This document shows, one piece after another, positions 38,462 to 62,953 of a DNA stretch of 64,000 nt (the stretch's first letter is position 1; each line of letters begins with the position of its first letter). The stretch comes from Gammaproteobacteria bacterium (GTDB lineage: Bacteria > Pseudomonadota > Gammaproteobacteria > Ga0077536). The position numbers and the translations under genes were made by a program. The notes below the pieces were generated by a model that made no database searches, was not told the origin of the DNA, and was given only the letters and a program-made list of their open reading frames with translations. The stretch is from positions 1,344,001-1,408,000 of the forward strand of contig CAXXLL010000003.1 of NCBI GenBank assembly GCA_963662545.2, read 5' to 3'.

Positions 38462-39094
38462 GTGATGATGAAGAATATTGCGGGCGCGTTGGTCTTGATC
38501 TTTGCATCGAGCGGCGCCACGACGGCACTGGCGGAAGCGGATCTCGAACGAGGCAAGCAGTTCTTTCAGGTTTGCGTCGCCTGCCACGGCGCCAATGGCG
38601 AGGGCAACCAGTTGCTCAACGCGCCTGCCAACGGTGGACAGAATATCTGGTATGTCATGCGGCAGTTGAGAAACTTCCGCGCCGGCATTCGCGGCTCGGA
38701 TCCCAAGGATCTCTACGGCATCCAGATGCGCCCGATGGCGATGACCCTGTCGGACGATCAAGCAGTCGTCGACGTCGCCGCCTACATCGGCACTCTGGAC
38801 GTGCCGGTACCGCCCAAGACCGTGGAGGGCGACGTCGAGGCGGGTAAGAAAGCGTTTGTCACCTGCATGCCCTGCCACGGCGAGAACGGGGAAGGCGCCA
38901 AATCGCTCAACGCCCCCCGCTTGTCCCGACAGCACGACTGGTACATCGTCAGGCAGCTCAACAACTTCAAATCCGGTGTGCGGGGTGCACATGCCAAGGA
39001 CATCTACGGGCAGCAAATGCGGCCGATGGCGCAGATCCTCGCGACCGATGAGCAGGTCAATGACGTCGCCGCGTATCTCAACACGCTGAAATAA
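38462..39094 (+). CDS. Diheme cytochrome c (c4/c553-like), exported
   Basis: Signal peptide, CVACH and CMPCH, and internally duplicated Y..RQL.NF..G.RG....D.YG.QMRPMA. Confidence 0.92.
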   Translation: MMMKNIAGALVLIFASSGATTALAEADLERGKQFFQVCVACHGANGEGNQLLNAPANGGQNIWYVMRQLRNFRAGIRGSDPKDLYGIQMRPMAMTLSDDQAVVDVAAYIGTLDVPVPPKTVEGDVEAGKKAFVTCMPCHGENGEGAKSLNAPRLSRQHDWYIVRQLNNFKSGVRGAHAKDIYGQQMRPMAQILATDEQVNDVAAYLNTLK

Positions 39095-40086: not shown

Positions 40087-40401
40087 TGTTGCACCTTCCC
40101 GCACTTACTTTATGACAGTATTGCTCTCCCCCGGATCCGGGATCGCTCTGGGGCGGCGGCTTTCACCTGATTGCAATCTTGGCCTTATAATCCGGCACAA
40201 ACAAGGTTTATGCGCAAGGGCTCGACTTGAGCGGCGGGCGACCGGGGAGGGGTTTCGCGGGCAACTGGACGGTCGTAGAATGTGGTCAGGGGGGAGGAAA
40301 CCAGCGTCGAAAAACGCGGCTAAGCCATCGCGGCCGCATGGCATCATTCGGCTGCCCGAAATGATATATTCCGTTCCGCCTCCGACCGCTTTTGTAAAAT
40401 C

Positions 40402-42657
40402 GTGAATAACAATATCAACAGAAGAGATTTTCTAAAATTCGTCGGTGCCGGGGGCGTTGGCACCGGAGCGGGAATACTCTACGGGGAGAGCACCAAAAGA
40501 ACGGTCGAGTTGCTGATCCCCCAGGTCGTCCCGCCGGAGGATTACTCGCCCGGCATCGCGACCTGGTACAACACCGTCTGCCACCAGTGCTCCGCCGGCT
40601 GCGGCATCAGCGTCCGCGTTCGTGAAGGTCGGGCCAAGAAAATCGAAGGCAACCCCTTGCACCCCGTCAGCCAGGGACGCCTCTGTTCCCTGGGTCAAGC
40701 CGGCGTCAACGCGCTCTATAACCCGGACCGCATCCGCACGCCCTTGCAGCGATCAGGCGATCGGGGGTCTGGAGAATTCACCGAGATCTCCTGGGACGAC
40801 GCGCTGACCTCGCTCGGTAACACGCTCGGCAGCCTCAAGATCCAGAATCACGCCAACCGGGTTTTCATGTTGAGCGGCGGCGTACGCGGTCACCTCGACC
40901 TGCTGTTCTCGAATTTCATGAAGGAAATGGGTTCGGACCATTACCTGCAATACGATTTTACTTACCCGGTAAACACCTACGAGGCGAATCGCATTGCGTT
41001 CGGGACGAGCGTATTACCCTATTACGACATCAAGAATACCCATTACCTGCTTTCTTTCGGAGCGGATTATCTCGGCACCTGGCTGTCCCCGGTGCACTAC
41101 GGCGTTGCTTACGGCCACCTGCGGCAGGGCGAAGATCGCCAGCGCGGCAAGTGCGTGCAAATCGAACCGCGCATGTCGCTCAGTGGCGCTAACGCCGATG
41201 AATGGATCACCGTCAGCCCGGGAACCGAAGGCTTAGTGGCGCTTGGTATAGCCCACAGCATCCTGGCCGGCGGGCATTACACCGGCGCCGACAGCGCCGA
41301 ATGGACGCAGGCGCTCGCGTCCTATTCACCCGCGACGGTCTCTGAGCGAACGGGCGTTGCGGCACCCCTTATCTCGAGAATCGCCGAGGAATTCATGCGC
41401 GCCGAACCCGGGCTGGCGATCGGCGGCGGCGGCGCGGCGGCGGGAACCAACGGTGTTGCCACCCTCGTTGCGGTCAATGTGTTGAATACCCTGAGCGGAA
41501 ATCTGGGCCAGCCGGGTGGCGTATTGTTCAATCCCGATCCGGTCATCGCCGGCGCACCGAAGCAGCGCCTGGCGAGCCATGCCGACATGCTCAAGCTGAT
41601 CGACGCAATGTCCGGCAAGGAGGTCGAGGTGCTGTTAGTGCACCAGGCGAACCCCGCTTACACGCTTCCGCCGGCAGCCAACTTCGTACAAGCCCTAGGT
41701 AATGTCGGGCAGGTCGTGAGCCTGTCGAGCTTCATGGACGAAACCACCGCCATGGCCGACCTCATCCTGCCGACGCATACCTATCTCGAAGCATGGGCCG
41801 ACGACGTTCCCGAGCCCGGCGTCGGTGTGCCCGTCGCCTCGATTTCACAACCCGTCGTCACGCCGGTTTTCGATACGCGGGCAAGCGGCGACATCATCCT
41901 GGCGCTCGCGCATCAGATCGGCGGTGAACTGCCGGCGAAGCTGCCGTGGAATCAGACCGAGGACTACCTCAAGGACAGCTGGAAGCAGATCTATGCCGAG
42001 CAGTCCGAACAGGACGCTTCGTTCAGCTTCGACGATTTCTGGCGGGCCGCTCTCAAAGCAGGGGTCTGGGCGGAAAAGAACGCGGCCCCGGCGCCGCAAA
42101 TAACTGGCCCGGTGGAAACGCTCAAGCAGAATTTGAAAATGCCCGCGGCTTCGTTCGATGGAGACGCCGGCGAGTTTCCCTACTACCTGCATCCCTATCT
42201 GACACAGGCTTTCCGCGATGGCGGCGGCGCGAACCTGCCGTGGATGCAGGAGTTACCAGACCCGTTGACGAGCGTGGTGTACGCATCGTGGGTGGAACTC
42301 AATCCCCAGACCGCGGCCGACATGGGCATCAACGAGGGAGACATCCTCGAAGTGAGTTCCCCCGCAGGCACCGTCAGAGCCCCGGCGTTCCTGTATCCCG
42401 GCATTCGACCTGACGTCGTTGCGATGCCGTTCGGACAGGGCCATCTGAAATACGGCCGCTATGCGAGCGGCCGGGGTGCAAATCCGATCGAAGTCGTGGG
42501 GCAGCTAACAGACGAAGACAGCGGCGCCCTCGCGTGGGCCGCAACGCGCGTCAAACTGCGCAATACCGGCGAACGGTTCAAGCTGATCAAGACCGATGGC
42601 GTGAGCCGGACACTCGGCAGACAGATCCTGGGCCCGGCGGAATCGGGACATGGTTAA
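40402..42657 (+). CDS. actB1: Tat-exported molybdopterin oxidoreductase-fold subunit (ActB1/QrcB-like)
   Basis: Tat motif RRDFLK, CHQCSAGC...GRLC, KIEGNP.HP.S.G, ADLILP..TYLE.W.D and ANLPWMQELPDP. Confidence 0.85.
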   Translation: MNNNINRRDFLKFVGAGGVGTGAGILYGESTKRTVELLIPQVVPPEDYSPGIATWYNTVCHQCSAGCGISVRVREGRAKKIEGNPLHPVSQGRLCSLGQAGVNALYNPDRIRTPLQRSGDRGSGEFTEISWDDALTSLGNTLGSLKIQNHANRVFMLSGGVRGHLDLLFSNFMKEMGSDHYLQYDFTYPVNTYEANRIAFGTSVLPYYDIKNTHYLLSFGADYLGTWLSPVHYGVAYGHLRQGEDRQRGKCVQIEPRMSLSGANADEWITVSPGTEGLVALGIAHSILAGGHYTGADSAEWTQALASYSPATVSERTGVAAPLISRIAEEFMRAEPGLAIGGGGAAAGTNGVATLVAVNVLNTLSGNLGQPGGVLFNPDPVIAGAPKQRLASHADMLKLIDAMSGKEVEVLLVHQANPAYTLPPAANFVQALGNVGQVVSLSSFMDETTAMADLILPTHTYLEAWADDVPEPGVGVPVASISQPVVTPVFDTRASGDIILALAHQIGGELPAKLPWNQTEDYLKDSWKQIYAEQSEQDASFSFDDFWRAALKAGVWAEKNAAPAPQITGPVETLKQNLKMPAASFDGDAGEFPYYLHPYLTQAFRDGGGANLPWMQELPDPLTSVVYASWVELNPQTAADMGINEGDILEVSSPAGTVRAPAFLYPGIRPDVVAMPFGQGHLKYGRYASGRGANPIEVVGQLTDEDSGALAWAATRVKLRNTGERFKLIKTDGVSRTLGRQILGPAESGHG

Positions 42658-42669
42658 AGAGGATGAGCA

Positions 42670-43428
42670 ATGGTAGATCTCGTCGAAAAATTCAGGCGAT
42701 ACACCAAACCGGGCTATTACGATACTTTCGATTACCACTGGACGATGAGCATCGATCTGGATCGGTGCACCGGCTGTGGTGCCTGTGTCGTCGCCTGTCA
42801 GGCGGAAAATAATCTGCCGATCGTGGGCGAGGATCATTTTCGCGAACGCCGCGAGATCAAATGGCTTCGCATCGAGCGGTATTGGGAAGGCGAGTACCCG
42901 AATGTGAAACTCAGGTTTCTCCCGATGCTCTGCCAGCAGTGTGACCAGGCACCGTGTGAAACGCCATGCCCGGTGGCGGCGACCTACCACAACCAGGACG
43001 GCCTCAACACCCAGATTTACAACCGGTGCATCGGCACCCGCACCTGTGCCGTCTACTGTCCGTATGAGGTGCGCTATTTCAACTGGTTCACCTACACCTG
43101 GGATGAACCCCTGGAGCAGCAGTTGAACCCCGACGTGACGGTCAGGGAAAAGGGCGTGATGGAGAAATGCACGTTCTGCATTCAACGCATCCGCCTGGCG
43201 AAGGATACGGCCAAGGACGATGATCGCCGACGCGTGCGCGACGGCGAAGTGACGCCCGCCTGCGTACAGACATGCCCGACAGAAGCCATGGTGTTCGGCA
43301 ACCTGAACGACCCGGACAGCCGGATTGCCAAGATGGTGAAGGACGAGCGCAGCTACCATGTCCTGGAGGAGCTCAATACCTCTCCCTCCATCGTGTATTT
43401 GACGAAAGTCGACGCTCAACATGGCTGA
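42670..43428 (+). CDS. actB2: Fe-S electron-transfer subunit (ActB2/QrcC-like)
   Basis: CTGCGACVVAC, CQQC..APCE..CP, CIGTRTCAVYCP (ActB-type 3Fe-4S) and GVMEKCTFC...PAC..TCP. Confidence 0.9.
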   Translation: MVDLVEKFRRYTKPGYYDTFDYHWTMSIDLDRCTGCGACVVACQAENNLPIVGEDHFRERREIKWLRIERYWEGEYPNVKLRFLPMLCQQCDQAPCETPCPVAATYHNQDGLNTQIYNRCIGTRTCAVYCPYEVRYFNWFTYTWDEPLEQQLNPDVTVREKGVMEKCTFCIQRIRLAKDTAKDDDRRRVRDGEVTPACVQTCPTEAMVFGNLNDPDSRIAKMVKDERSYHVLEELNTSPSIVYLTKVDAQHG

Positions 43429-44746
43429 ACACCAAGAACCCACTTACGCCGAAGTCAACCAAGATGTTCTCGATACCCTGCTCCACACGGGGCGGGGGTA
43501 TTGGATTCTGCTCGGAGTGAGCATAACAGTCGTTCTCGTTTGTTTCGTCGGGCCGTGGATCTATCAGTTGAACGTCGGCATCGGCGCCTCCGGCATGAAT
43601 CGAAACGCGGTTTGGGGCACTTATCTTTCCAACTTCATTTTCTGGATCGGCCTGTCCCATTCGGGCACCCTGCTGTCGGCAATCCTGCACATCACACACA
43701 GTTCCTGGCGCAACGCCATCTACCGCAGCGCGGAAGCGATGACGTTGTTCTCGCTTATGACGGCGGCCTGTTTCGTGATGGTGCACCTCGGCCGGGTCTG
43801 GTTCATTCACTGGAGCGCGCCTATTCCGAACGAAATGGGCCTGTGGCCGAACTTTCGCTCGCCGCTTATGTTCGACGTCATGGCCATCACGACCTACCTG
43901 ACGGCGAGCTCGATCTTTATCTATATGGGATCAGTACCGGACTACGCCGCCGTGCGCGATGCCAGCACGGGCTTGCGCCGCCGGCTTTACACGATCTTTT
44001 CCTTTGGCTGGCGCGGCACCGCCAAGGAATGGCATACGCTGGCCGCGGCCTACCTGTTCTTCGCGGTGTTCGTGATCCCGCTTGCGGTCTCCGTCCACAG
44101 TATCGTGTCCTGGGACTTCGCCTTGTCGATCGTTCCGGGTTTTCACCACACCATATTTGCACCCTATTTCGTCTGCGGCGCCATCTATTCGGGCACGGCC
44201 GGCATCGTGACCGTGATGTACCTGCTGCGTAGAACCATGCATCTCGAGCGCTACATTCGCGAGATTCACGTCGACAACCTAGGCAAGCTCCTCCTCGCCC
44301 TGTCGCTGGTATGGACCTATATCAATGCGCTGGAGCTTTTCACCGGATGGTACAGCGGCACCTCCTATGAGATTGAGGCGCTCAAGTTCAAGATGTTCGG
44401 CTTTTACGCGCCGCTGTTCTGGGAAATGATACTGTTCTGCGCGGTCGTGCCGATGCTGATCTGGTTCAACAGGATCCGCTTGAACTGGACCGCCATGTTC
44501 TGTATATCCATCCTCATCAATATCGGCATGCTGACCGAGCGGTTCATCATCGTCGCCACCAGTCAGCCGATCAAGTTCCTGCCGAGCGCCTTCGGTTTCT
44601 ACTTTCCGAGCATGATCGAAATCTCGATCACCATCGGTTCCTTCGGCATCTTCACTACCTTGTTTCTACTCTTCATCAAGTGGACACCGTGTATTTCCAT
44701 TTACGAAGTGAAGGAAACCCTGAGACCACTGACTAGGGGGGCGTAG
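43421..44746 (+). CDS. actC: NrfD/PsrC-family quinol-binding membrane subunit of ACIII
   Basis: WG..I.NF.FWIG..H.GTL.SAIL, R.AEAMT, HLGR.W, WPNFRSPL..D, VSVHSIVS.DFA and TIF.PYFV.GAI.SG. Confidence 0.92.
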   Translation: MAEHQEPTYAEVNQDVLDTLLHTGRGYWILLGVSITVVLVCFVGPWIYQLNVGIGASGMNRNAVWGTYLSNFIFWIGLSHSGTLLSAILHITHSSWRNAIYRSAEAMTLFSLMTAACFVMVHLGRVWFIHWSAPIPNEMGLWPNFRSPLMFDVMAITTYLTASSIFIYMGSVPDYAAVRDASTGLRRRLYTIFSFGWRGTAKEWHTLAAAYLFFAVFVIPLAVSVHSIVSWDFALSIVPGFHHTIFAPYFVCGAIYSGTAGIVTVMYLLRRTMHLERYIREIHVDNLGKLLLALSLVWTYINALELFTGWYSGTSYEIEALKFKMFGFYAPLFWEMILFCAVVPMLIWFNRIRLNWTAMFCISILINIGMLTERFIIVATSQPIKFLPSAFGFYFPSMIEISITIGSFGIFTTLFLLFIKWTPCISIYEVKETLRPLTRGA

Positions 44747-45256
44747 ATGACCAAGAGCGTAATGGGCATGTTCCGCTACCAGGAGGATTCGCTGGCCGCG
44801 GCGAAGAAGCTCAAGTCCTCGGGTTTCGCCAATCCCCATATGATGTCGCCGATCCCGGTGCACGATGCCTACGAAGCGCTGGAATACGGGGTGTCTGCCG
44901 TGCGCCGCTTTTCACTGGCCGGCGCCATCGTCGGCGCGATTTCCGGGTTCAGCCTGGCCGTAGCCTGCGCCCTGGTCTTCATCCTGCCGACGGGCGGTCG
45001 CGCGATCATTGCGGTCCCGCCCTTTCTGATCATCACCTATGAGATGACCATCCTCTTCGGCGTGCTGGCTACCCTGCTCGGATTCCACTTCGTCTCGGGC
45101 CTGCCGGCCTGGCGCGATGCGCCCTATCGTCCCGAAGTGATCGTCGATCGCTTTTCGGTGGTCGTGGACTACGAAGAGGAATCACAACGGGCGGACGCGG
45201 AGCGGCTGCTTCGCGAAGCGGGCGCAGAAGACGTGCACAACATGGAAATCGAATGA
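44747..45256 (+). CDS. actD: DUF3341 membrane subunit of ACIII
   Basis: SP.PVH, two transmembrane helices, GGR...A.P.F.IITYE.TILF and L.EAGA..V. Lies directly after actC. Confidence 0.88.
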   Translation: MTKSVMGMFRYQEDSLAAAKKLKSSGFANPHMMSPIPVHDAYEALEYGVSAVRRFSLAGAIVGAISGFSLAVACALVFILPTGGRAIIAVPPFLIITYEMTILFGVLATLLGFHFVSGLPAWRDAPYRPEVIVDRFSVVVDYEEESQRADAERLLREAGAEDVHNMEIE

Positions 45257-45786
45257 TGCTCAGGCGATACGCCGTACTCGCCACCGCCGTTGCCGGCCTG
45301 GTCGTCTCGGGGCCCATCGGCGCGCTGCCGTGGGACAAGGACATGAAGAATCAACCGTCGATCAAACCGCAGGAATCCCAAGTCGAAACGAACCGGACTT
45401 CGGTTCCAAGGGACGGCGGTGACCTCTACGGTCCGCCCGCCGATACGACCGAGCTGGTGAGGATGCGCCTCGAAGCCGGCGCCCTGCCGAATCCGCAGCC
45501 CAAGACGGCGGAATCGCTGAACCGGGGCAAGGACTTGTACGACGTCCACTGCGCCATCTGTCACGGCACGGAAGGTCGCGGAGACGGACCGGTCGGCAAA
45601 AAATACATACCCGACCCGATGGACCTGACGCTCGAATACGTTCAGCTGCAGCCCGACGGCCAACTGTATTACACCATCAGCCACGGCAGTATCGCGATGC
45701 CGTATTACCGCGATTCGATCGCGCGGCACGAGCGCTGGCATGTCATCAACTACATCAAGGAAGTTCTGAGGGGTAAGCCCGAATGA
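45253..45786 (+). CDS. actE: Monoheme cytochrome c subunit of ACIII
   Basis: DM..QPS.KPQE, RG..LY...CAICHG..G.GDG.V, DG.LYYTI.HG...MP.Y and ERW.VI.YI. Confidence 0.88.
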   Translation: MMLRRYAVLATAVAGLVVSGPIGALPWDKDMKNQPSIKPQESQVETNRTSVPRDGGDLYGPPADTTELVRMRLEAGALPNPQPKTAESLNRGKDLYDVHCAICHGTEGRGDGPVGKKYIPDPMDLTLEYVQLQPDGQLYYTISHGSIAMPYYRDSIARHERWHVINYIKEVLRGKPE

Positions 45787-47051
45787 ACGGCACGGGTCAA
45801 TTGGCGCTCGGCGTCCCCGACGAGGCACCGGGCTATGCGTTCACCTTGACGACAGCCGTTCTGCTGTTCCTGGCTGCAACGAGCTGGTTCGTCTATGCGC
45901 TGCTGACCGAGCCGTCCGCCCAGGCCTGGGGTTATCTGGTCGTCAATTTCCTCTACGTTCTCGGGGTCAGTCAGTTCGGCATCGCTTTTTGCGCGCTCAT
46001 GCGTTTGTGCGGTGCCAAGTGGGCCCGGACCTTCTATCCCATCGCCGCGATGATCACGCTGGCTTTCTGTCCCTTCGCGATCATTGGGTTTCTGTTCATC
46101 TACGCCTTTGGAAGCGAACATATCCTGTATTGGCTCGCGGCGCCCGAAAGCGCGCACTTGAGCCCGTGGCTGGATTCGAAGCTGTTGCTATATCGCAATC
46201 TCGGGGCACAAGTGCTGTTCTACGGTATCGCTGTCTACTATGCCGCGCTCGGTCTGTCTCCTGAAATTCCGCAAGACGAACTGAACAAGGGGCCCGGGTG
46301 GCGGCAGGTGCTGCTCCATTGGGTATCGTCATTCCGAAAGGGTCGCGACGACGCGTTGATCGAGGACCGGCTGTATCGTTGGTCTCCGATCGTCCTGATC
46401 GCCGCGATATTGGCAAATACGTTCATCGCGTGGGATTTTTCCATGATGCTGGTCGCCCACTATCACAGCACGGTGTTCCCGATGTATTTCATCCTGGGGA
46501 ACATGTACGGCGGAGCCGGCCTGATCCTGATCATCTCGATCATCATGTTGCGCTTCATACCGGTCAGCGAACACTTCAAGACGACACATTTGCGCAGCAT
46601 GGCCATCCTTATGACCGGTTTTCTACTGTTGTGGCTCTACATGTTCTGGGCCCAGTTCTTCGTCAGCTGGTTCGGCAACCTACCGCACGAATATGGCGTA
46701 TTGTCGGTGCAGATGTACGGGCATTACGCGCCGGTTTTCTGGGCGATGATGACCTGCAACACCCTGATTCCACTCGCCGCGCTGCTCTTCGTCAAGGTGA
46801 AGACGACGTGGTGGATGATGATAGTGGTCGCTTGCGTCATCAACAGCGGCATCTGGTTGAACCGCTACCTGCTGGTCATGCCGGGCCTGAGCGAGGATCA
46901 CCGGTTCTTCGGGTCGATCACTGAGATTACGATGACCGTGGGTTTATTTGCCGGGTTTCTCACACTCTTGCTATTATTTTTCAACGCCATTCCGGTGGTG
47001 TCGACATGGGAGAAGAGCGACCCTGCCGATCACGGCCGCATCTGGAAATAG
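45783..47051 (+). CDS. actF: NrfD-like membrane subunit of ACIII
   Basis: About 10 transmembrane segments, L.GAKWAR, WDF.M.L..HY.STVF and LW.Y.FWAQF...W.GNLP.E. Confidence 0.85.
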   Translation: MNGTGQLALGVPDEAPGYAFTLTTAVLLFLAATSWFVYALLTEPSAQAWGYLVVNFLYVLGVSQFGIAFCALMRLCGAKWARTFYPIAAMITLAFCPFAIIGFLFIYAFGSEHILYWLAAPESAHLSPWLDSKLLLYRNLGAQVLFYGIAVYYAALGLSPEIPQDELNKGPGWRQVLLHWVSSFRKGRDDALIEDRLYRWSPIVLIAAILANTFIAWDFSMMLVAHYHSTVFPMYFILGNMYGGAGLILIISIIMLRFIPVSEHFKTTHLRSMAILMTGFLLLWLYMFWAQFFVSWFGNLPHEYGVLSVQMYGHYAPVFWAMMTCNTLIPLAALLFVKVKTTWWMMIVVACVINSGIWLNRYLLVMPGLSEDHRFFGSITEITMTVGLFAGFLTLLLLFFNAIPVVSTWEKSDPADHGRIWK

Positions 47052-47079
47052 ATTCGGCATCGATTAAGAGCAAATCTTT

Positions 47080-47595
47080 ATGCGAACACCATCCGAAACG
47101 CTAATTTTCAAGGCTGCCTACGGTCTCGTCGGCCTGCTTGTGCTAATCGCGTCGTTGCTCGCCGGATGCGAGCGCCCGAAGGAGACCCCCGTTGGGACGG
47201 ACCGGGTCGCCCTGGAGGCCAACGAGCATCTGAAGACTTTCGGCGACTACACGCTGCACGTCAATGCGCTGACGACCGATCAGCTTCCCTCGGAGGTCGC
47301 AAAAGAGTACCGGATCTCCAGAAGTACCAGCCGCGCAATGCTCAATGTCGTCGTTACCACTAAATCCGACGGCGCCGACAAACCGGTAACGGCGTCGGTC
47401 ATCGCCAACGCGAGGAACCTCGCAGGGCAGTTCAAGGATTTGGAGATGCGTGAAATTCTCGAAAAGAACGCCATCTACTACATTGCCGATATAGCGGTGG
47501 ACGACCAGGAAACACTGATCTTCGACATTGACGTCATCCCAGTTAACGAAACCGACGTGTTGAAGCTGAGCTACAAGCACGAATTCTTCCACTAG
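47080..47595 (+). CDS. DUF4426-like lipoprotein
   Basis: Lipobox LLAGC, with FGDY..H.NA..T..L..EVA..Y.I.RS..RA.LNV.V and A.NL.GQ...L..REI.E..AIYYI. Confidence 0.8.
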   Translation: MRTPSETLIFKAAYGLVGLLVLIASLLAGCERPKETPVGTDRVALEANEHLKTFGDYTLHVNALTTDQLPSEVAKEYRISRSTSRAMLNVVVTTKSDGADKPVTASVIANARNLAGQFKDLEMREILEKNAIYYIADIAVDDQETLIFDIDVIPVNETDVLKLSYKHEFFH

Positions 47596-47618
47596 CCCGC
47601 CTTCGTGCAATTGGCCGG

Positions 47619-49157
47619 CTAATCTGGGTCCTGATCGCGCTCAGCCTGCCGGGTTCTGACCCGCGCGACGGCCGCTTCTATCTCATCTTTCATGGTCTCG
47701 GCGTCCGGCGATTCATCGACGAGCTCGCTGCCGTCGGTCTCGCTCCCGTCTTTCATCCGTTTGAGCCGTGCTTGGCGGGATTCGTAATGCAGCCGCGCCT
47801 CGTCACTTTCCAGGCGGGCCCGCTCCAGGTTTTGTATTTCTGATTTCGCTTTGCGGTAATAGTCCACGAGCGGGATGTTGCTCGGACAGACGTAGGCACA
47901 ACAGCCACATTCGATGCAGGCGTTCAAATCGTATTCAGCCGCCCGTTCATAATCCCTGTCGCGCGCATAAGTGTATAGCTGCTGCGGAAGCAGCGCTGCC
48001 GGACAGACTTTTACACAGTCTCCGCAGCGGATGCACTCTTGCGCAGGGAGCGGCGGCAGCATCTCACCGCGACCCGCTGCAATGATGCAGTTGGTCGTCT
48101 TGAGCACAGGAAGCTCAGTCGACTGGAGTATGAATCCCATCATGGGTCCGCCGATGATGTGCTGCTCGGGTTCCTCGACATAGCCGCCGCATTGCTCGAT
48201 CAATCGTTCGATGGGCGAACCGATCATCACGTCGAGATTCCGCGGCTGCTTCACCGCGCTTCCGGTAATCGTCACGATGCGCGAAATAAGCGGCACGCCC
48301 CAGGCCATGGCCCGATATACCGCAACTGCGGTTCCGACGTTGTAGCAAGCAATGCCCAGATCCAGCGGCAGCCCCTGGGCGGGCACCTCGAGCCCCGTGA
48401 GCGACTTTATCAGCTGGCTCTCGCCACCGGCGGGATAGACGGCCGGCAGGGTTGCGATCGTAATACTGGTTTCGCCGATGTCGTCCAGCGCCTTGCGCAG
48501 CGCTTCGATGGCTTCCGGCATATTGTCCTCGATGCCGATGACGCACTCGACAGCGCCGACCGCGCGGCGGACGAGTTCCAGTCCGGCGACCACGTCCGGG
48601 GCGTACTCGCGCATCAGCGCTTCATCACAGGAGATATAAGGTTCGCACTCCGCCGCATTCAGGATCATCAAATGGACGCCATGGTGAATGCCGGGAAGCA
48701 TTTTTGCAGCGGAGGGAAAACCCGCCCCGCCCAGCCCGACAATTCCCGCTTCGAGCATCTTGTCGTGTATCTGGGTCGGTGACAGTGTGTAGGGATCGTC
48801 GCCGATACCTGCGTGCGGAACCCACTCGTCCAAGCCGTCGGTCTCGATCAGGATGCACGGCGCGTCCGCACCGGACGGGCTGGGAACGGGATGATTGCCG
48901 ATTTCGACGATGGTACCGGAACTGCTCGCATGGATGGACGCGCTGATGATGCCGTTGTCATTCGCGATCAGCTGGCCCTTGAGAACCCGCTCGCCCACGG
49001 CGACGACAGGTACCGCCGGCGCGCCCACGTGCTGGCGCAGCGGCAAGGTCAATAGCGGCGGGACCAGTACCTTCTCAATGGGCAACTTGAGTGATTGGGT
49101 TTTGTTCGGCGCGGATTTGATCCCACCACCGAAATGAATGGGGCTATCGAGCAGCAT
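47619..49157 (-). CDS. rsxC: Electron transport complex subunit RnfC/RsxC
   Basis: L.QH.GAP, HASSSG, AGIVGLGGAGFP, NAAECEPY, YPAGGE, GGPMMG, CIRCGDCVKVCP and CIECGCCAYVCPS.IPLV. Confidence 0.94.
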   Translation of the reverse strand: MLLDSPIHFGGGIKSAPNKTQSLKLPIEKVLVPPLLTLPLRQHVGAPAVPVVAVGERVLKGQLIANDNGIISASIHASSSGTIVEIGNHPVPSPSGADAPCILIETDGLDEWVPHAGIGDDPYTLSPTQIHDKMLEAGIVGLGGAGFPSAAKMLPGIHHGVHLMILNAAECEPYISCDEALMREYAPDVVAGLELVRRAVGAVECVIGIEDNMPEAIEALRKALDDIGETSITIATLPAVYPAGGESQLIKSLTGLEVPAQGLPLDLGIACYNVGTAVAVYRAMAWGVPLISRIVTITGSAVKQPRNLDVMIGSPIERLIEQCGGYVEEPEQHIIGGPMMGFILQSTELPVLKTTNCIIAAGRGEMLPPLPAQECIRCGDCVKVCPAALLPQQLYTYARDRDYERAAEYDLNACIECGCCAYVCPSNIPLVDYYRKAKSEIQNLERARLESDEARLHYESRQARLKRMKDGSETDGSELVDESPDAETMKDEIEAAVARVRTRQAERDQDPD

Positions 49158-49205
49158 GGATGCCCTAAATGAAATTCACCGGTAAGTTGGCGGTCAGCCC
49201 TGCTG

Positions 49206-49745
49206 TCACTTGTGGCAGGTCCAGCAGTCCCGCCCATGCTCCACTTCCCTCTCTGTGTGACAATCCACACACCAGGGCATCCTAAGCGTCGAAACCCGCG
49301 TCACGCGGTCCATGGTTTCGATCGGGCCATGACACTCCTGGCATGCGATACCCGCCTTGATGTGGCGCTTATGGGTGAAATGGACGAAGTCGGGCACGTC
49401 GTGGACCTTGATCCACGGGATCGGTTCACGATTCTCCCAATACTCAAAAACTTTCAGGATCTCGGGCTTGTCCGTCGCGATGACCTTATGACAGCCGATG
49501 CACTTGTTGACGCTCGGGACGCCCGCCGACGGTGTCTTGTCCGCGTACACATGACAGTGGAGACATTCGATCCCGTTCTCACTGACGTGAATGCGATGGC
49601 TGAAATTGATGGGTTGTATCGGGGCTCTGTCGGAGTAATACGTGGCGTTGACCCACCAGCCGACGAAGAATCCGATAATACCGACGATTCCGATCAGCGT
49701 CGGTTTTAAGAACGGTGCTAAAGCGTCCCGAACTGAAATAGACAT
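49206..49745 (-). CDS. actA: Membrane-anchored pentaheme cytochrome c3-family protein (ActA/QrcA-like)
   Basis: N-terminal transmembrane helix, P.QPINFSH..H, five CxxCH motifs (CLHCH, CIGCH, CQECH, CVDCH, CWTCH) and IPW.KVH..PDFVHF.H..H. Confidence 0.9.
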   Translation of the reverse strand: MSISVRDALAPFLKPTLIGIVGIIGFFVGWWVNATYYSDRAPIQPINFSHRIHVSENGIECLHCHVYADKTPSAGVPSVNKCIGCHKVIATDKPEILKVFEYWENREPIPWIKVHDVPDFVHFTHKRHIKAGIACQECHGPIETMDRVTRVSTLRMPWCVDCHTEREVEHGRDCWTCHK

Positions 49746-49800: not shown

Positions 49801-50187
49801 TCAACTCATGAGGTACAGCGAAGGTCCCTCGATCGTCTCGTCCTTTATTTGCACCATGGCCGGATACGTTCCGGCTCGTTGAAAAATCAGGTTTTGAAGC
49901 GGCAGGATAAGATGGGTTTTGGACGGCGGCCGCGTTGCGGGACGCGCTTCCACCTCGGAATGCCCGTCGATCGTGAATATCTCGGCGCCGTCGGGGTCCA
50001 GCAGGTCGATCTTGAACGGCTGCTTGCCGTGATCCTCGTGATCCCATTCGACGATGCCGGCGAGCATCAGGTGATCCTGGCGGGCCGGAAACGAGGGTGC
50101 GTAGAGTTCATTGTAGATACCGCGCAGATCGAGTTTGCCGTTGGCGACGGTTTCTGCGGACTCACAAAAAAATAAGGCGACGTTCAT
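49801..50187 (-). CDS. Hypothetical beta-sandwich protein (DUF6941-like)
   Basis: FCE.A....GKL...GI.N.L.A..FPA and L.F...GTY. Start placed at ATG 50187. Confidence 0.65.
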   Translation of the reverse strand: MNVALFFCESAETVANGKLDLRGIYNELYAPSFPARQDHLMLAGIVEWDHEDHGKQPFKIDLLDPDGAEIFTIDGHSEVEARPATRPPSKTHLILPLQNLIFQRAGTYPAMVQIKDETIEGPSLYLMS

Positions 50188-50429
50188 GATCTTGTGGCGG
50201 CGTGCCGCGCCAGGATGATACCGCACTCATAATTATTAGAAGCTATCTAGGTGAAAGCGTCCGTTGCATCCCCCGGCAACAGCGCATCTGAGGCCAATTG
50301 TACCGGAATAGCGCCGGAACTGGGACGTTCCACGGTTCCTCCAAACCGGCGCCGGCGGACCGCACCGCTCGCCGCTTGCCGCCAGTTAACAGCGCCTCGC
50401 GCCCATCTTCGGTCTGGATCGCAACCGCT

Positions 50430-51248
50430 TCAGTCCTCGTGCGCGATGCGCTTGATGATATAGCCGCCGGACCGTTCGTCGAGTTCCAGATCGAGCCGGC
50501 CTCTGGCCTGTGCTTCTTCCAGTAACTTGTTGAAGGAGCGAACGCCGTAGGCACTTTCAGTGAATTCCGGACGACGCCTTTTCAAAGCCTGTTTGATCAT
50601 CGAACCCCATAGGGTTTCCTTGCCGCCGCGTTCATTTTGCAGGGCATCGGCGGTTTCGATTACAAGATCGATGACCGCCTCCAGCGGATCGTCCTTTTTC
50701 GGGGTGGCCTTACCGGGCGTCGATTTCTTCCTGACCGGGGCTCGTCGATGGGCCTTTCTCGCCATTTCTTCCTGGCGAACGAGATCGTCGTAGAAAATGA
50801 ACTCGTCGCAATTACTAATCAGTAGATCCGAGGTGGAACTTTTCACCCCCACGCCGATAACTGTTTTCGCATTTTCGCGAAGTTTGCTCACCAGCGGTGA
50901 AAAATCCGAATCGCCGCTGATGATCACAAATGTATCGACGTGCGATTTTGTATAACAAAGATCCAGCGCATCGACCACCATCCGGATGTCGGCGGAATTC
51001 TTGCCGGACTGCCGCACGTGCGGAATCTCGATCAGTTCAAACGCCGCTTCGTGCATCTGGGCGCGAAAAGTCTTGTACCGATCCCAGTCGCAATAGGCCT
51101 TCTTGACGACGATGCTGCCTTTCACCAGGAGGCGTTCCAGCACCGGCTTGATATCGAATTTCGCGTATTCCGCGTCGCGCACACCGAGCGCGATATTCTC
51201 GAAATCACAGAATAAGGCGAGATTCTGATTGTCGCTTTCACCTGCCAT
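50430..51248 (-). CDS. NYN domain (LabA/DUF88) protein with C-terminal OST-HTH
   Basis: ALFCDFEN, GKNSADIRMVVDA, SGDSDFSPL, CDEFIFYD and P.F.E..YG..SF..LLE. Confidence 0.92.
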   Translation of the reverse strand: MAGESDNQNLALFCDFENIALGVRDAEYAKFDIKPVLERLLVKGSIVVKKAYCDWDRYKTFRAQMHEAAFELIEIPHVRQSGKNSADIRMVVDALDLCYTKSHVDTFVIISGDSDFSPLVSKLRENAKTVIGVGVKSSTSDLLISNCDEFIFYDDLVRQEEMARKAHRRAPVRKKSTPGKATPKKDDPLEAVIDLVIETADALQNERGGKETLWGSMIKQALKRRRPEFTESAYGVRSFNKLLEEAQARGRLDLELDERSGGYIIKRIAHED

Positions 51249-51535
51249 CGGTAGTGCTCCTCGTTCTTGCACCGGCGCACGAAGTGCCGGACGCAGCATC
51301 GTTCACCCCGCGTGTTTTCACTTCGCAATCAACACGGGATGTCGTCGAGAGTATAAAGGTTCGGGCTGACTATGCGGCCAGTTTCGATCGCGTCGACGTC
51401 GCCTGGCGGACCACGGCGTCGAATTTTGGGGAAAGTTTCAATGCCAATACCCACCAGGATTTGATATAAGCTGGTGCGAGTCCGGGCCGCCGCTGGGGGG
51501 CAGCAGCCACTAGCAGCACCGAAGGTTGACCGTCG

Positions 51536-53432: not shown

Positions 53433-53571
53433 TGCCGTCGGGCAAGGTCGGATCGCTAGAGGTGTCCCGCTCCACGAGCCGCGGGCTCCGAATCGATTCT
53501 CACTATGTGGATCCGTGCGCCGGGCGTTCGTTGTAGACTAATCCGCTGCCGCCATTGCATGGGGGGGTGCA

Positions 53572-54444
53572 ATGTATCCGGAGCCGATCGAGAATTTCTA
53601 CGCGCCAACGGCCTTGTCGGAAGCACTCGACCTGCTCGCTAAACACTCGAACGAAGCGAGACTCATTGCCGGCGGCCAGAGCCTGGTACCGCAGATGAGA
53701 GCGCGCGAGGTAAAGCCCCGGACCTTGATCGACCTCAACCGGATCACGGATTTCACCGCGATCGAAATCAACGGGGACCGGCTGCGCATCGGCGCTCTCG
53801 TGAGACATCGCGCAGTGGCGTCGGATGCTTCCCTTCACGCAAACTGCGCGGCCTTCGCGGAAGCCGCCCGTGCGATCGGCGATCGGCAGATTCGAAACCG
53901 GGGCACCCTCGTCGGCAATATCGTCAATGCCGATCACACAGCCGACATGCTGGGCCCTGCCATCGCTTTCGATGCCCGGCTCGGGATCGTGGGCGGCGCC
54001 AGCGGAATGCGCTCGGCAGCGGTAGAGTCCTTTGTGACCGGGCCGCGCGCATGCGGATTGGCCGCCGATGAAATCGTTTCGTTCATTGATATTCCCCTGT
54101 CCCGACACCGCACCGGCAGCTGCTATTTGAAACACGGGCGGGTGGCCCAGGACCGTGCAACACTCGGCGTGGCGGCGCGCATCATAATCGACGCCAACGG
54201 CGGGTGCATAGACGCCCGCGTGGTCGTGACCGGAGTCCTGCCCAAACCCGTTCGCCTCGGTGAATTGGAGGCTGCGCTTCTCGGCAAGACCGCCGGCCGG
54301 ATGGACCTCATCAACCCCAGCGACCTTACTGCTAGTCACGTGGCAACGCAAAGCGACGAGCTCGCGTCGTCCGCCTATCGCACGCAGTTGCTCCGGGTCA
54401 TGACGCCGGACGCCATCGCGTACGCCTTTCGGCGAGCGGGGTAA
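53572..54444 (+). CDS. Xanthine oxidase-family FAD-binding medium subunit (CoxM-like)
   Basis: IAGGQSLVP, LRIGALV.H, IGDRQIRNRGT.VGN and L..DEI. Confidence 0.92.
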   Translation: MYPEPIENFYAPTALSEALDLLAKHSNEARLIAGGQSLVPQMRAREVKPRTLIDLNRITDFTAIEINGDRLRIGALVRHRAVASDASLHANCAAFAEAARAIGDRQIRNRGTLVGNIVNADHTADMLGPAIAFDARLGIVGGASGMRSAAVESFVTGPRACGLAADEIVSFIDIPLSRHRTGSCYLKHGRVAQDRATLGVAARIIIDANGGCIDARVVVTGVLPKPVRLGELEAALLGKTAGRMDLINPSDLTASHVATQSDELASSAYRTQLLRVMTPDAIAYAFRRAG

Positions 54445-54448
54445 GGGC

Positions 54449-54961
54449 GTGAAACGCGAGATCGGCATCACCATCAACGGAGAAAGAATCGAGGCATTCG
54501 TCGAGCACCGCCTGTTACTCGTCGATTTCATACGAGAGGTCGCCGGCGCCACCGGTACGCATGTCGGCTGCGGATTCGAGGGTCGCTGCGGAGCGTGCAC
54601 CGTGCTCGTCGACGGCGCGGCGTGCAAGTCCTGCCTCATGTTCGCCGTACAGGCCGAGGGCACCGACATCACGACGATAGAAGGCCTCGCACGGGGCGAT
54701 ACCCTGCATCCCCTGCAGCAGGCTTTCACGGACCGCCATGGTTTGCAGTGCGGGTATTGCACGCCAGGTTTTCTTATAACGCTATACGACTATCTAAAGG
54801 ATCCCGAATGTGATGCATCGGCGGAGGGTATCCGCGAAGCGATCGGCGGCGTGCTGTGCCGCTGCACCGGATACGTTCACATCATCGAGGCGGCGCAGCA
54901 GGCGATCGAGGTGCTCGCGCAAATGGACGGCGCCGAACGGGCAAAGTGGTTTCCTAAATAG
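54449..54961 (+). CDS. Xanthine oxidase-family 2Fe-2S small subunit (CoxS-like)
   Basis: GTHVGC...G.CGACTV, KSC, LQCGYCTPGF and LCRCTGY. Confidence 0.95.
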   Translation: MKREIGITINGERIEAFVEHRLLLVDFIREVAGATGTHVGCGFEGRCGACTVLVDGAACKSCLMFAVQAEGTDITTIEGLARGDTLHPLQQAFTDRHGLQCGYCTPGFLITLYDYLKDPECDASAEGIREAIGGVLCRCTGYVHIIEAAQQAIEVLAQMDGAERAKWFPK

Positions 54962-54964
54962 GCA

Positions 54965-57328
54965 ATGAATACGCAAGAACAGACTTGGGTCGGCCGCTCG
55001 ATCAGGCGCAAGGAAGATCATCGGCTGCTGATCGGCGACGGCCGTTACGTCGCCGACATGACGCTCCCGCGTATGCTCATCGCTGCATTCGTGCGCAGCC
55101 CACACGCGAATGCCCGGATCATCCACATCGATGCATCCCGGGCGCTGACCATGGCGGGGATCACCGAGGTCAAAACCGGTAAAGACCTCGAGCACCTAGG
55201 ACCTGTACTGAGCGATCTTTCGATTCCGCGTCTTCCGGGGGAGACCAAGCGTCCCGTTTTCTGGCCACTCCCGGTGAATGAGGTGACCTACGTGGGCGAT
55301 TTGGTGGCGGTCGTTATCGGTCGGGACAAGTATGTCGTCGAAGACGCCGTCCATGCCGTTGCGGTGGAATACGACGTTCGTGAGGCGGTCCTCGATCCGG
55401 AAATCGCGCTGCTGCCCGATTCACCGCGCGTATATTCAGATTGGGACGATAACGTCGTTTATCACCAACATTTTTCGGGCGGCGACATCGAGCAGGCCTT
55501 CGCTAGCGCCGACCTCGTCGTGTCCCAGAGATTCCGCAGCGCACGCAGCGGGGCTTCGCCGATGGAGCCGCGCGCATCCATTGCCGAGTACAGCGCCGCC
55601 GAAGGTTTGACGGTGTGGCTCACGACGCAGCGCTCCCACATCAAACGTCACCTGCTGGCCGAATACTTCAAGATTCCCGACAGCAAGATCCGGGTGATTG
55701 CGCCCAAGGACGTCGGCGGGGGCTTCGGCGTAAAGGCGCCACTCTACCGCGAAGACATTGTGCTGTGTCATCTATCGATGTGCCTCAAGCGACCCGTAAA
55801 GTGGGTCGAGAACCGCCAGGAAAATCTGGTCAACATCGGCCAGGAACGCGATCAGATCCACGACATCGAGCTGGCGCTGAGGAAGGACGGCAAGATCCTC
55901 GGCATCCGTGATCGCATGGTGGCCGATTGCGGTTCGGCCCAGGTACCGATCTACGTCTCCTTTTCCATGCCGTGGCTGGGCGCGATGTACCTGACCAATG
56001 GTTACGACATCCCCAACATCGACATCGATCTCTACTGCGTGGTCACCCACAAGCCCGGGCTTACCCCGAGCCGATCCTTCGGATCGTTCACCTGCCGCTT
56101 CGCGATCGATCGCATCGTCGATATCGCCGCGCGACGCTTGAAGATCGATCCGGTGGAGATCCGTCGGAAGAACGCGATTAAGAAATACCCGCATACCCTT
56201 GCCACCGGCGTCCATTGCGATTCCGGTGATTTCCCCGGAGCCCTGGACAAAGCCTGCCACGCGATCGACTACGAACGCTTTCGCAAAGAACAACAGGCCG
56301 CGCGCGGCGAGGGCCGCTATCTAGGCATCGGGTTCAGTCTCGGCATCGAGTTCTCCGGCTTATCGTCGCAGATCCTGGTGCCGATGGAGCGGCAGCCCGG
56401 ATTCGGTGTCGCCACGGTGCGATTCGACGCCAACGGCAACGTGCAGGTCGCTCACGGCGACCAGCCGCAAGGCCAGGGTCATGACACAACCATCGCACAG
56501 GTCGTCGCCGATGAGCTCGGACTGACGCCGGACGACATCTACGTCATTTCCGGTGATACGCAGTCCGCTCCATTTGCAGCCGGAACCCTGGCGTCACGAA
56601 TGGGCGGCTATACCTTGAGCGCGGCGGTGCTGGCGGCACGCGGCCTCAGGCCCAAGCTGGCCGCGATAGCAGCGCATCATCTAGGTATTTCGGCCGGTGA
56701 GGACGAATTCGTTTTCCGTGATGGTGAGGTGATGCTGGCGGCTGATCCAACGCAGCGTGTCGCCGTCGCCCGCATCGCGGAAACGGCGATGCTTGCGCCG
56801 ACGGAGCTACCGCCCGGCATGGACGGCGGACTCGAGAACACCGCGCACTTCGAGGCCGACACGACCGGTATGCACAGCACCAACGTCCACGTCGTCACCG
56901 TCGAGGTATTTCCGAACACGGGGGACTGCCAAATCCTGCGCTACATCGCCGTCGATGACTGCGGCCGTCCCGTCAATCCAACCATGGTACGCGGCCAGAT
57001 CCATGGCGGGGTCGCACTCGGCATCGGCAACGCCTGTCAGGAGGAGTTCGTCTACGACGAAGCGGGAAACCCACTGGTGACCACCTTGACCGATTACCTG
57101 ATGGTGTCCGCACGCGACCTGCCGCATATCGAGGTGATCAATCACGACAACCCGTCGCCGCATACGCCACTGGGAACGAAAGGCAAGGGCGAAGGTCCGA
57201 CGGGCATGGTGCCCGGCGCTCTCGGCAACGCCATTGAGGATGCGCTCAGTCCTTTCGGCGTCACGATTGCGGAACTTCCCATGACTAAAGAACGGATCTG
57301 GACGCTCATCGATGAAGCGTCGCGCTGA
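54965..57328 (+). CDS. Xanthine oxidase-family molybdopterin large subunit
   Basis: RKED.RLL.G.G.Y, DVGGGFGVK, active-site loop PSRSFG, QGQGH.T, GQIHGG and GTKGKGEG. Confidence 0.92.
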   Translation: MNTQEQTWVGRSIRRKEDHRLLIGDGRYVADMTLPRMLIAAFVRSPHANARIIHIDASRALTMAGITEVKTGKDLEHLGPVLSDLSIPRLPGETKRPVFWPLPVNEVTYVGDLVAVVIGRDKYVVEDAVHAVAVEYDVREAVLDPEIALLPDSPRVYSDWDDNVVYHQHFSGGDIEQAFASADLVVSQRFRSARSGASPMEPRASIAEYSAAEGLTVWLTTQRSHIKRHLLAEYFKIPDSKIRVIAPKDVGGGFGVKAPLYREDIVLCHLSMCLKRPVKWVENRQENLVNIGQERDQIHDIELALRKDGKILGIRDRMVADCGSAQVPIYVSFSMPWLGAMYLTNGYDIPNIDIDLYCVVTHKPGLTPSRSFGSFTCRFAIDRIVDIAARRLKIDPVEIRRKNAIKKYPHTLATGVHCDSGDFPGALDKACHAIDYERFRKEQQAARGEGRYLGIGFSLGIEFSGLSSQILVPMERQPGFGVATVRFDANGNVQVAHGDQPQGQGHDTTIAQVVADELGLTPDDIYVISGDTQSAPFAAGTLASRMGGYTLSAAVLAARGLRPKLAAIAAHHLGISAGEDEFVFRDGEVMLAADPTQRVAVARIAETAMLAPTELPPGMDGGLENTAHFEADTTGMHSTNVHVVTVEVFPNTGDCQILRYIAVDDCGRPVNPTMVRGQIHGGVALGIGNACQEEFVYDEAGNPLVTTLTDYLMVSARDLPHIEVINHDNPSPHTPLGTKGKGEGPTGMVPGALGNAIEDALSPFGVTIAELPMTKERIWTLIDEASR

Positions 57329-57361
57329 TTCGTTGAATTAAACGTAGAAACGGAGGGCACT

Positions 57362-58354
57362 ATGCCGAGAATCGTACGCTTTCATCAGACCGGCGCGGCC
57401 GAGGTCCTGCAACTGGATGACCTGCCGATGCCGGACGCTGCCGAGGGTGAGGTGGTGTTGAACGTCGAGGCATTCGGTTTGAATCGCGCGGAAATCATGT
57501 TTCGTCGCGGCGAATATCCGCAGTATGCGCCCGAGTTACCCTCGACCATTGGATACGAAGCGGCGGGGACGGTGGCCGCCGTGGGTGCCGGCGTAACGGC
57601 GTTCAAAGTCGGTGACCGTATCAGCACCATTCCATCGTTCAAAATGGGCCGCTACTGGAGCTACGGCGAGGTTGCTCGCGTGCCGGTGCACGCCGCGGCC
57701 TCTTATCCGAAATGCCTGTCAGTGATCGAAGCGAGCGCGATCTGGATGCCTTACATGACAACCTACGGCGCACTGATCGAATACGGCAGGCTTGCCGCGG
57801 GCGAACATATCGTTATCACGGCCGCGAGCAGCAGTGTCGGCATTGCCGCCATACAGATGGCCAGAAGCTTGGGCGCCGTTCCCATTGCGGTCACGCGCGG
57901 CTCAGACAAGCGCGATTTCATCGTTGCCCAGCGACCCGCGCACGTCATCGTTAGCTCCGAGGAAGACGTCGCAGATCGGATCCTGGAGATCACGCACGGC
58001 AGGGGTGCGGAAATGATTTTCGATCCGGTGTCGGGGCCGCAGGTGGCGGAACTTTGCCGCGCGATTGCTTACCAGGGACGTATATTCGTCTACGGCCGTC
58101 TCGATGCGGAGACGACGCCTTTCCCCGTCGGGCTCGGTCTCGCCAAAGGATTGACGATGCGCGGATATTCGTTGTTCGAGGTAGTCAATTTTCCACCGGT
58201 CTTCGAGCGTGCGAAACGACACGTCTTCGACGGCCTCGAACGCGGTGATTATCACCCCGTAATCGACTCCACGTTTTCCCTCGAAGAGGTCGTCGAAGCC
58301 CATCGCCACATGGCGTCCAATACCCAAAAGGGCAAGATCGTCGTCACCGTGTAA
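57362..58354 (+). CDS. MDR-family (zinc-free) NADPH:quinone oxidoreductase-like protein
   Basis: GLNRAE, GYEAAG, ITAASSSVG.AAIQ, FDPV.G and EAHR.M.SN...GKIVV. Confidence 0.9.
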   Translation: MPRIVRFHQTGAAEVLQLDDLPMPDAAEGEVVLNVEAFGLNRAEIMFRRGEYPQYAPELPSTIGYEAAGTVAAVGAGVTAFKVGDRISTIPSFKMGRYWSYGEVARVPVHAAASYPKCLSVIEASAIWMPYMTTYGALIEYGRLAAGEHIVITAASSSVGIAAIQMARSLGAVPIAVTRGSDKRDFIVAQRPAHVIVSSEEDVADRILEITHGRGAEMIFDPVSGPQVAELCRAIAYQGRIFVYGRLDAETTPFPVGLGLAKGLTMRGYSLFEVVNFPPVFERAKRHVFDGLERGDYHPVIDSTFSLEEVVEAHRHMASNTQKGKIVVTV

Positions 58355-58512
58355 GCCCCGGCGATCCGTTCACCGGTGTGATCGACCACACCGGCGTGAC
58401 GTATGGCAGGCGCGCGTCAAGACTGTCGTCACCTGCACGCGCGAGGAGCAACAACAATGAGAGCGGCAGAGTTCGTCTAGCGCGGCCGGATCGCCGCCTC
58501 CGTTAAGAGGCG

Positions 58513-60831: not shown

Positions 60832-60923
60832 TGTCCCCTCTCCCCATGTTCCTCCAGTGCCTTACGATTTGCTTGCGCGTTGCGCCCCGCTGAGCGTTCA
60901 TGCCATGCCGCATCCGCCGTTTA

Positions 60924-61229: not shown

Positions 61230-61428
61230 GACGGAGTTCCTCTTGTCCGCTCTGTGGATCCGTTCATGCTACATGGCCCCCTGCGTGGAGGTAAACTTCC
61301 AGATATGCGATGGTTCGATCCTCGAATCGAGATGTGCCGATAATAGCGATTCGCGGCTTGGGTGGGACGAATCACCGTCTACAGGCGGCCACCCGGCCAC
61401 CGCTTCAACCAGCCTGAAGGAACCCGCC

Positions 61429-62886: not shown

Positions 62887-62953
62887 AGCACCAGTCCTCG
62901 CTCCGCGATTCGGGCATAATCACAAAAGTATAGCGAGGGGGGGGGCTTACCCA

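Follow-up and report, generated by a model that had tools for sequence, protein, structure and literature searches.

The stretch analysed here, called the window, comprises 64,000 nucleotides of contig CAXXLL010000003.1 (positions 1,344,001 to 1,408,000 of the forward strand) from a gammaproteobacterium, and it carries the genes of an alternative complex III (ACIII) next to a solitary rnfC gene. The open reading frame (ORF) map reproduced the layout that an earlier note on this DNA had described. On the + strand, actB1 (40402-42657), actB2 (42670-43428), actC (43421-44746), actD (44747-45256), actE (45253-45786) and actF (45783-47051) follow one another and are continued, 29 bp after actF, by a gene for a DUF4426 lipoprotein (47080-47595). 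On the − strand, actA (49206-49745) and rnfC (47619-49157) are arranged in this order with a gap of 48 bp. The DUF4426 gene and rnfC are convergent, their stop codons being 23 bp apart, and actA lies on the strand opposite to the act operon, 2.1 kb beyond its end.

A solitary rnfC and a displaced actA

The rnfC gene encodes a protein of 512 aa with the domain order RnfC_N, a NuoF-like domain (Complex1_51K) for flavin mononucleotide (FMN), SLBB and two 4Fe-4S motifs, and the FMN/NADH and cluster motifs were intact. The protein scored 631 bits against the RsxC model NF003454 (cut-off 345) and 537 bits against TIGR01945 (cut-off 246), and it matched RnfC of Azotobacter vinelandii (8ahx_C) with an E value of 2.4e-132; the gene is intact, as the earlier note had described. 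The score against the PrdC model TIGR04481 was 177.5 bits at a cut-off of 490, indicating that the protein is not of the PrdC type, and a Pfam scan revealed no added N-terminal domain such as MetV. In the protein atlas, the matches were generic RnfC clusters only. The best 120 matches of the protein search included relatives at 83%, 74% (four proteins), 64% and 54-63% identity. Among 160 columns with at least 90% conservation, the window RnfC departed from the consensus at 8 (median 3; seventh in rank among 120), and P0045, with 92% identity to the RsxC encoded in the canonical locus L001, departed at 9; the cofactor core is therefore under normal constraint. The window RnfC and its nearest kin were altered at a few nearly invariant positions (D347T, W396T, F412N, D413A and R457H), several of which adjoin the second cluster motif.

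The usual partners of rnfC were then searched for in the window. With RsxA, RsxB, RsxD, RsxG, RsxE and Nth of locus L001 as queries, tblastn gave no match anywhere in the 64 kb, and only RsxC matched. Pfam scans of the other called ORFs of the window revealed no rnf gene either. The sequence without any further rnf gene extends for 47 kb on one side of rnfC and for 15 kb on the other, which upholds the earlier description of rnfC as solitary. For comparison, 36 rnfC loci were fetched from a genome scan queried with the window RnfC, the best locus being 52% identical. In all 34 fetched loci with downstream sequence, rnfD was located directly 3' of rnfC (L018 and L019 end just after rnfC), in agreement with the statement that rnfC normally adjoins rnfD. 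In the gammaproteobacterial comparison loci the order was rsxABCDGE, in most cases flanked by metG and nth; the sequence of L036 starts within rsxC. One locus from a gammaproteobacterial metagenome-assembled genome (L008:6759-11672) had the order rsxC-D-G-E-nth, with an enoyl-CoA hydratase gene instead of rsxA-B directly upstream of rsxC. Thus, rsx operons can lose their 5' part.

The product of actA is a membrane-anchored pentahaem cytochrome c of 179 aa, with an N-terminal membrane helix and five CXXCH motifs at residues 61, 82, 135, 159 and 174. Its best matches in the PDB were the A subunits of the ACIII structures 6f0k (6f0k_A, 3e-37), 8k9e, 6btm and 6lod, confirming the identification of a pentahaem ActA. 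The protein search returned 325 relatives, mostly of 179 aa, the best of which was 93% identical. A tblastn search with E values up to 10 found no second actA or actA remnant in the window. In the one annotated ACIII cluster that we opened, on a plasmid of Paraburkholderia sabiae, actA comes first, as the earlier note had stated for act operons in general, and SCO, coxB and ctaD stand after the operon. Since rnfD follows rnfC in every comparison locus that can be judged and actA heads the Paraburkholderia sabiae cluster, the layout in the window departs from both norms.

A clade of RnfC proteins linked to DUF4426

The fetched loci gave a restricted view of the surroundings of rnfC. The genome scan used six 8-residue words that are absent from P0003-P0025 (P0002 carries one), and it is therefore blind to close kin of the window RnfC. 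Within this scope, which includes neither the close clade nor the genome that the window comes from, an act gene or a DUF4426 gene was found near rnfC in none of the 36 fetched loci. Searches of the plasmid collection with DUF4426 and RnfC yielded nothing relevant, with the sole exception of a record of Aeromonas caviae, where DUF4426 and rsxC lie at 0.58 and 3.14 Mb, respectively. In the open-access literature, no description of rnfC beside ACIII or beside DUF4426 was found.

Co-location was assessed by the exact size identity of the longest contig carrying each representative, among the 120 best matches each of RnfC, ActA and DUF4426. RnfC and DUF4426 gave 15 pairs on identically sized contigs, namely the window's own and 14 others, and the matched contigs ranged from 3186 and 4435 bp up to 2.59 Mb. 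Both proteins came from a shared source database in 13 of the 14 other pairs; the exception, a pair of 2290 bp, is doubtful. As a control, one list was slid by 1-200 bp either way, which produced on average 0.52 matches and never more than 3. RnfC and ActA gave one match (2623 bp, different sources), which is at chance level, and ActA and DUF4426 gave one match on a contig of 2.3 Mb. The ActA matching, which covers the best 120 of 325 relatives and, for the large ActA clusters, the contig of the representative only, weakly disfavours a conserved link between actA and rnfC. With 14 matches for DUF4426 against a chance-level match for ActA, the conserved neighbour of these RnfC proteins appears to be DUF4426 and not actA.

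The matched proteins also fell together in phylogenetic trees. In a FastTree tree of 129 rows (L003, L008 and L012-L036 were left out), all 15 rows with a DUF4426 match were placed in one clade of 54 rows with a support of 100, and this clade held none of the nine canonical-operon loci included. The DUF4426-match label needed a single change on the tree, and none of 500 shuffles was as low. In a quick IQ-TREE analysis of 84 rows, the window RnfC belonged to a clade of 40 rows with a Shimodaira-Hasegawa-like approximate likelihood ratio (SH-aLRT) of 100, whose sister was a clade of 23 rows containing L001, L002 and L009, all of which are canonical operons. The window copy and its relatives form a clade of their own, which the earlier note had named as a point to be checked. 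Because of this DUF4426-linked clade, the lone rnfC is best assigned to a distinct, conserved branch rather than put down to an accident of assembly. Judged from sequence comparison, it is in all probability an old, conserved, non-operon branch of RsxC-type proteins, encoded beside DUF4426.

That misjoins at the junctions around rnfC produced the layout is extremely improbable, and nothing in support of such an artefact was found in the data at hand. Identical RnfC and DUF4426 are recorded on 5 and 4 contigs, respectively, and the longest contig for both is 5,809,490 bp. The co-location recurs on the 14 other contigs, which shows that the position of rnfC is neither peculiar to this assembly nor a misjoin, two possibilities that had been raised at the outset. 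Moreover, the GC content was even across the region and all ORFs were intact. Seven contigs of 0.9-5.9 Mb carry members of the clade, and none of them occurred twice among the 120 best RnfC matches, giving weak evidence for one RnfC per genome.

The DUF4426 protein (PF14467) showed several features of its own. The lipobox Cys30 was invariant in 63 rows, and His60 and Met87 were nearly invariant. Its AlphaFold model (pLDDT 85.9) had the Ig-like fold of 3uc2 (PA0388) and weakly resembled the periplasmic copper/iron proteins P19, FetP, FtrA and CrdA, with a template modelling score (TM) of about 0.5. No function of DUF4426 was evident in the open-access literature that was found. This family, for which a structure has been solved but no function assigned, would gain its first conserved genomic partner in RnfC.

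Relatively relaxed constraint in the C-terminal helix and possible partners of RnfC

The solved RnfC/RsxC subunits of Azotobacter vinelandii (8ahx_C) and Clostridium tetanomorphum (7zc6_C), as well as 9eri_C, share with the window RnfC the four-domain build and the motifs for FMN and 2x[4Fe-4S]. Unlike these subunits of Rnf/Rsx complexes, the window RnfC is not encoded next to rnfB or rnfD, belongs to the DUF4426-linked clade and has a C-terminal helix that is relaxed relative to the core. Regional constraint was measured as the mean within-group pairwise identity, comparing the 54-row clade with the other 66 of the 120 best RnfC matches, few of which have a known genomic context. The two groups were similar in the N-terminal domain (0.63 in the clade versus 0.60 in the comparators), the FMN domain (0.645 versus 0.63) and the SLBB domain (0.68 in both), and the ferredoxin domain was somewhat less conserved in the clade (0.63 versus 0.73). 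However, the identity of the C-terminal helix at 433-475 was 0.42 in the clade versus 0.73 in the comparators, making it the most divergent of all 43-column windows of the protein (Mann-Whitney p 5e-11). For the core, the corresponding values were 0.64 and about 0.65. The per-column difference between comparators and clade was 0.31 in the helix versus 0.006 in columns 1-432. Thirteen columns were conserved in the comparators and variable in the clade, 8 of them at 433-491, and the reverse pattern occurred at 2 columns. Residues 1-45 behaved in the opposite way to the helix, with higher conservation in the clade than among the 66 comparators (difference −0.12 to −0.14).

Residues 433-468 of the window RnfC align with residues 428-463 of Azotobacter RnfC, whose long C-terminal helix touches RnfB and RnfH (PMC12174285). 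The helix evolves faster than the core in this clade, which on the sequences compared probably amounts to a relative relaxation and not a loss, and the contact with RnfB may have been given up.

These results lead us to prefer, tentatively, a reading in which two separate neighbours meet at the locus: a normal ACIII with a displaced actA, and a non-operon, free-standing RnfC whose acceptor is not ACIII. RnfC would work in the cytoplasm as an electron module in which NADH reduces FMN and FMN reduces the 2x[4Fe-4S] clusters. Its branch would have left the rsx operon long ago and would hand the electrons to an acceptor other than ACIII, although this free-standing function is something that we infer. 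For actA, a single inversion, broken between actA and actB1 at one end and immediately upstream of rnfC at the other, could turn a canonical order of actA-B1...F-DUF4426, with a convergent rnfC behind it, into the present order. ActA would still be made, exported and loaded with haem, and would join ActB1B2CDEF in the membrane.

Several observations weigh against this preference. The score of 631 bits against the RsxC model lies within the range of 521-695 bits of ten operon-encoded full-length RsxC proteins that were scanned, and rsxABDGE may be located elsewhere in the genome, beyond the 64-kb window. The link between the clade and DUF4426 is one of shared contigs and says nothing of gene order, strand or, on long contigs, distance. 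Across 11 widely divergent canonical loci, the helix was about as conserved as the core (0.42 versus 0.47), so the contrast described above is partly due to the 66 comparators, in which the helix is unusually conserved. The helix is present in the clade with its motif partly kept, and the tail residues R464 and R499 are invariant in both groups; therefore some function of the tail persists. Finally, neither inverted repeats nor insertion sequence (IS) scars turned up at the junctions in a search for repeats and in blastn with short words, leaving the breakpoints of the proposed inversion unmarked, and since no repeat or IS scar supports it, the inversion as the origin of the present gene order is something that we infer.

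Some of the same observations are what would be expected of a split rsx system, an explanation that is nearly as likely. The window RnfC would then be the only, ordinary RsxC of the cell and would dock on an RnfD/RnfB core encoded elsewhere, and the vicinity of actA would have no functional meaning. The RsxC score inside the canonical range fits this well, as do core domains that are as conserved as in the comparators, the inconspicuous record of the window RnfC at conserved columns, the partly kept helix motif with its invariant arginines and the failure to see a second RnfC on the seven large contigs. In the Rnf complex, moreover, RnfC lacks a membrane anchor; the cytoplasmic arms of RnfD hold it in place, and it is firmly joined to RnfB (PMC9588780). 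But in this clade alone, the helix that contacts RnfB and RnfH in the solved structure changes much more rapidly than the core. Given that rnfD follows rnfC in 34/34 loci, it would also be exceptional for a split to persist throughout a clade of 54 rows, and the long stretches without an rnf gene on both sides of rnfC offer no partner nearby.

Rnf/Rsx is treated as a six-gene unit. If the free-standing RnfC that we favour is real, an RsxC-type gene that persists apart from the operon throughout a wide clade would add a new example of a subunit of a respiratory complex going independent, like RnfC2 in acetogens, and both the proximity of DUF4426 and the relaxed RnfB-contact helix point to such independence.

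The ACIII cluster and its relation to RnfC

The act operon was examined subunit by subunit. ActB1 (751 aa) carries the twin-arginine translocation (Tat) motif RRDFLKF, matches the TAT signal model and contains the molybdopterin oxidoreductase domains PF00384, PF04879 and PF01568; it scored 121-141 bits against the ActB chains of the solved ACIII structures (8k9e_B, 6f0k_B, 6lod_B and 6btm_B). ActB2, an iron-sulfur subunit with 4Fe-4S dicluster domains, is encoded by a gene separate from actB1. ActC is an NrfD-type membrane subunit and matched chain C of the ACIII structures 6f0k, 6btm, 6lod and 8k9e with E values of 8e-101 to 3e-95. ActD (PF11821, 122.8 bits) had 1146 relatives at E <= 0.001 in the protein search. 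ActE is a monohaem cytochrome c (PF13442, PF00034) with one CXXCH motif (CAICH) at residue 100. ActF, a second NrfD-type membrane subunit with a weak NrfD match, resembled both C and F chains of ACIII (6f0k_C 2e-24, 6btm_F 4e-17, 6f0k_F 2e-10). With ActA, ActB as B1 and B2, ActC, ActD, ActE and ActF, all six subunit types of ACIII are represented, indicating that the window probably encodes a complete ACIII with actA off the operon head.

The window cluster has the same six subunit types as the ACIII of Rhodothermus marinus (6f0k), Flavobacterium johnsoniae (6btm) and Roseiflexus (6lod) and as the structure 8k9e. It differs from them in that actA is not at the operon head, ActB is split into B1 and B2, and B1 retains the cluster motif CX2CX3C...C. 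No oxidase genes follow the window cluster, whereas SCO, coxB and ctaD do so in the Paraburkholderia plasmid cluster. The Qrc complex (QrcABCD) is also related. The best NCBIfam matches of ActA, ActB1 and ActB2 were QrcA (111 bits, cut-off 180), QrcB (364 bits, cut-off 440) and QrcC (254 bits, cut-off 400), all below the curated cut-offs; but Qrc lacks ActD, ActE and a second NrfD subunit, all three of which are present in the window.

The motif in ActB1 consists of C60, C63, C67 and C95 and is of the kind that holds a [4Fe-4S] cluster. In its N-terminal part, the arsenate reductase ArrA (6cz7_A, 215 bits) was a better match than the ActB chains of ACIII. From its sequence, ActB1 looks more like a working molybdoenzyme than classical ActB does.

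The earlier note had proposed that RnfC was recruited to an ACIII/Qrc-type complex as its cytoplasmic NAD(H)-binding module, co-expressed with ActA, which the present data render improbable. In its favour, actA and rnfC share a strand, the 48-bp gap that separates them contained no site resembling a promoter or terminator, and the pair converges on the act operon, whose last gene is here the DUF4426 gene to which the RnfC clade is linked. The stronger conservation of the N-terminal 45 residues of RnfC in the clade, relative to the comparators, could be fitted to the same idea, and there is a precedent in RnfC2 of the Acetobacterium woodii type III methylene-tetrahydrofolate reductase, an RnfC-like NADH-binding module encoded beside the genes of the enzyme (PMC8760232). 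But RnfC2 has an added N-terminal MetV domain, which the window RnfC does not have, and serves a soluble enzyme of the cytoplasm, whereas the complex encoded next to the window RnfC has its cofactors across the membrane.

The topology tells against recruitment as well. In Rnf, the two clusters of RnfC link its FMN to a riboflavin inside RnfD (PMC12174285), and NrfD-type membrane subunits carry no redox cofactor (PMC8076601). ActA has only about 14 cytoplasmic residues. With ActB1 exported by the Tat system, ActA a c-type cytochrome anchored in the membrane and the NrfD-type subunits free of cofactors, a cytoplasmic RnfC would have no visible electron path into ACIII. The genomic record points the same way, with a single, chance-level contig match of ActA and RnfC in 120 x 120 against 14 for DUF4426, one match of ActA with DUF4426, and no act gene in the 36 fetched rnfC loci, from a scan that could not reach the close clade. 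A complex prediction for ActD and RnfC gave a score of 0.01; run without controls, it carries no weight either way. A coupling of RnfC to ACIII is thus unsupported. The more cautious options of the earlier note, co-regulation or chance rearrangement, fare better: a rearrangement with at most co-transcription fits the locus better than recruitment does.

A broader form of the idea, in which the DUF4426-linked RnfC is a free NADH-oxidising module that found a new membrane partner, here ACIII, with ActA and RnfC co-expressed, is likewise quite improbable. If true, an NADH-linked ACIII would provide a direct route from NADH to cytochrome c that bypasses complex I or the Na+-translocating NADH:quinone oxidoreductase (NQR), but electrons would have to cross ActC/ActF/ActD along a path that is seen in no solved ACIII. 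Nothing at the locus yet counts as evidence for an NADH-coupled ACIII; the new point, which is solid, is the DUF4426-linked RnfC clade. For ACIII itself, the locus suggests that the expression of actA can be separated from that of the other act genes.

The order of a cytochrome gene followed by rnfC also occurs in Rnf clusters headed by a cytochrome, such as MmcA with rnfCDGEAB in Methanosarcina acetivorans and, in Desulfovibrio, a cluster in which rnfC is preceded by a multihaem cytochrome gene. These clusters share with the window a gene for a multihaem cytochrome c immediately 5' of rnfC. However, rnfDGEAB come after rnfC there and none of these genes does so in the window, where the cytochrome is a true ActA.

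Upstream of actB1, a promoter-like site (TTCACC-18-TATAAT, 40162-40191, +; 10 of 12 matches) is located in the 297-bp gap ahead of the gene. Across the region, 6 promoter-like sites were found versus 5.3 expected from shuffles, and the promoter and terminator scan was no richer than shuffles; the site is therefore no more than a lead. At 38462-39094 (+), 1.3 kb upstream of actB1, a gene for a dihaem cytochrome c with two PF00034 stretches is hidden under a longer − strand ORF that belongs to no family. Its product could be a soluble electron acceptor of the ACIII.

On the other side, a DUF6941 gene (PF22091, 90 bits; 49801-50226, −) lies 55 bp ahead of actA and is mentioned for context only. 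Together with an NYN-domain nuclease-like gene, it occupies 49801-51299 (−) upstream of actA on the same strand, where PADLOC reported a weak NYN match only. The flanks at 1-36000 and 53500-64000 are dense in catabolic genes, including genes for an acetone carboxylase-like enzyme, a Rieske dioxygenase, a pyrroloquinoline quinone (PQQ) dehydrogenase with a cytochrome c domain, two molybdoenzymes of the xanthine dehydrogenase family, luciferase-like monooxygenases and a dimethylformamidase-like protein. This gene content fits an aerobic heterotroph.

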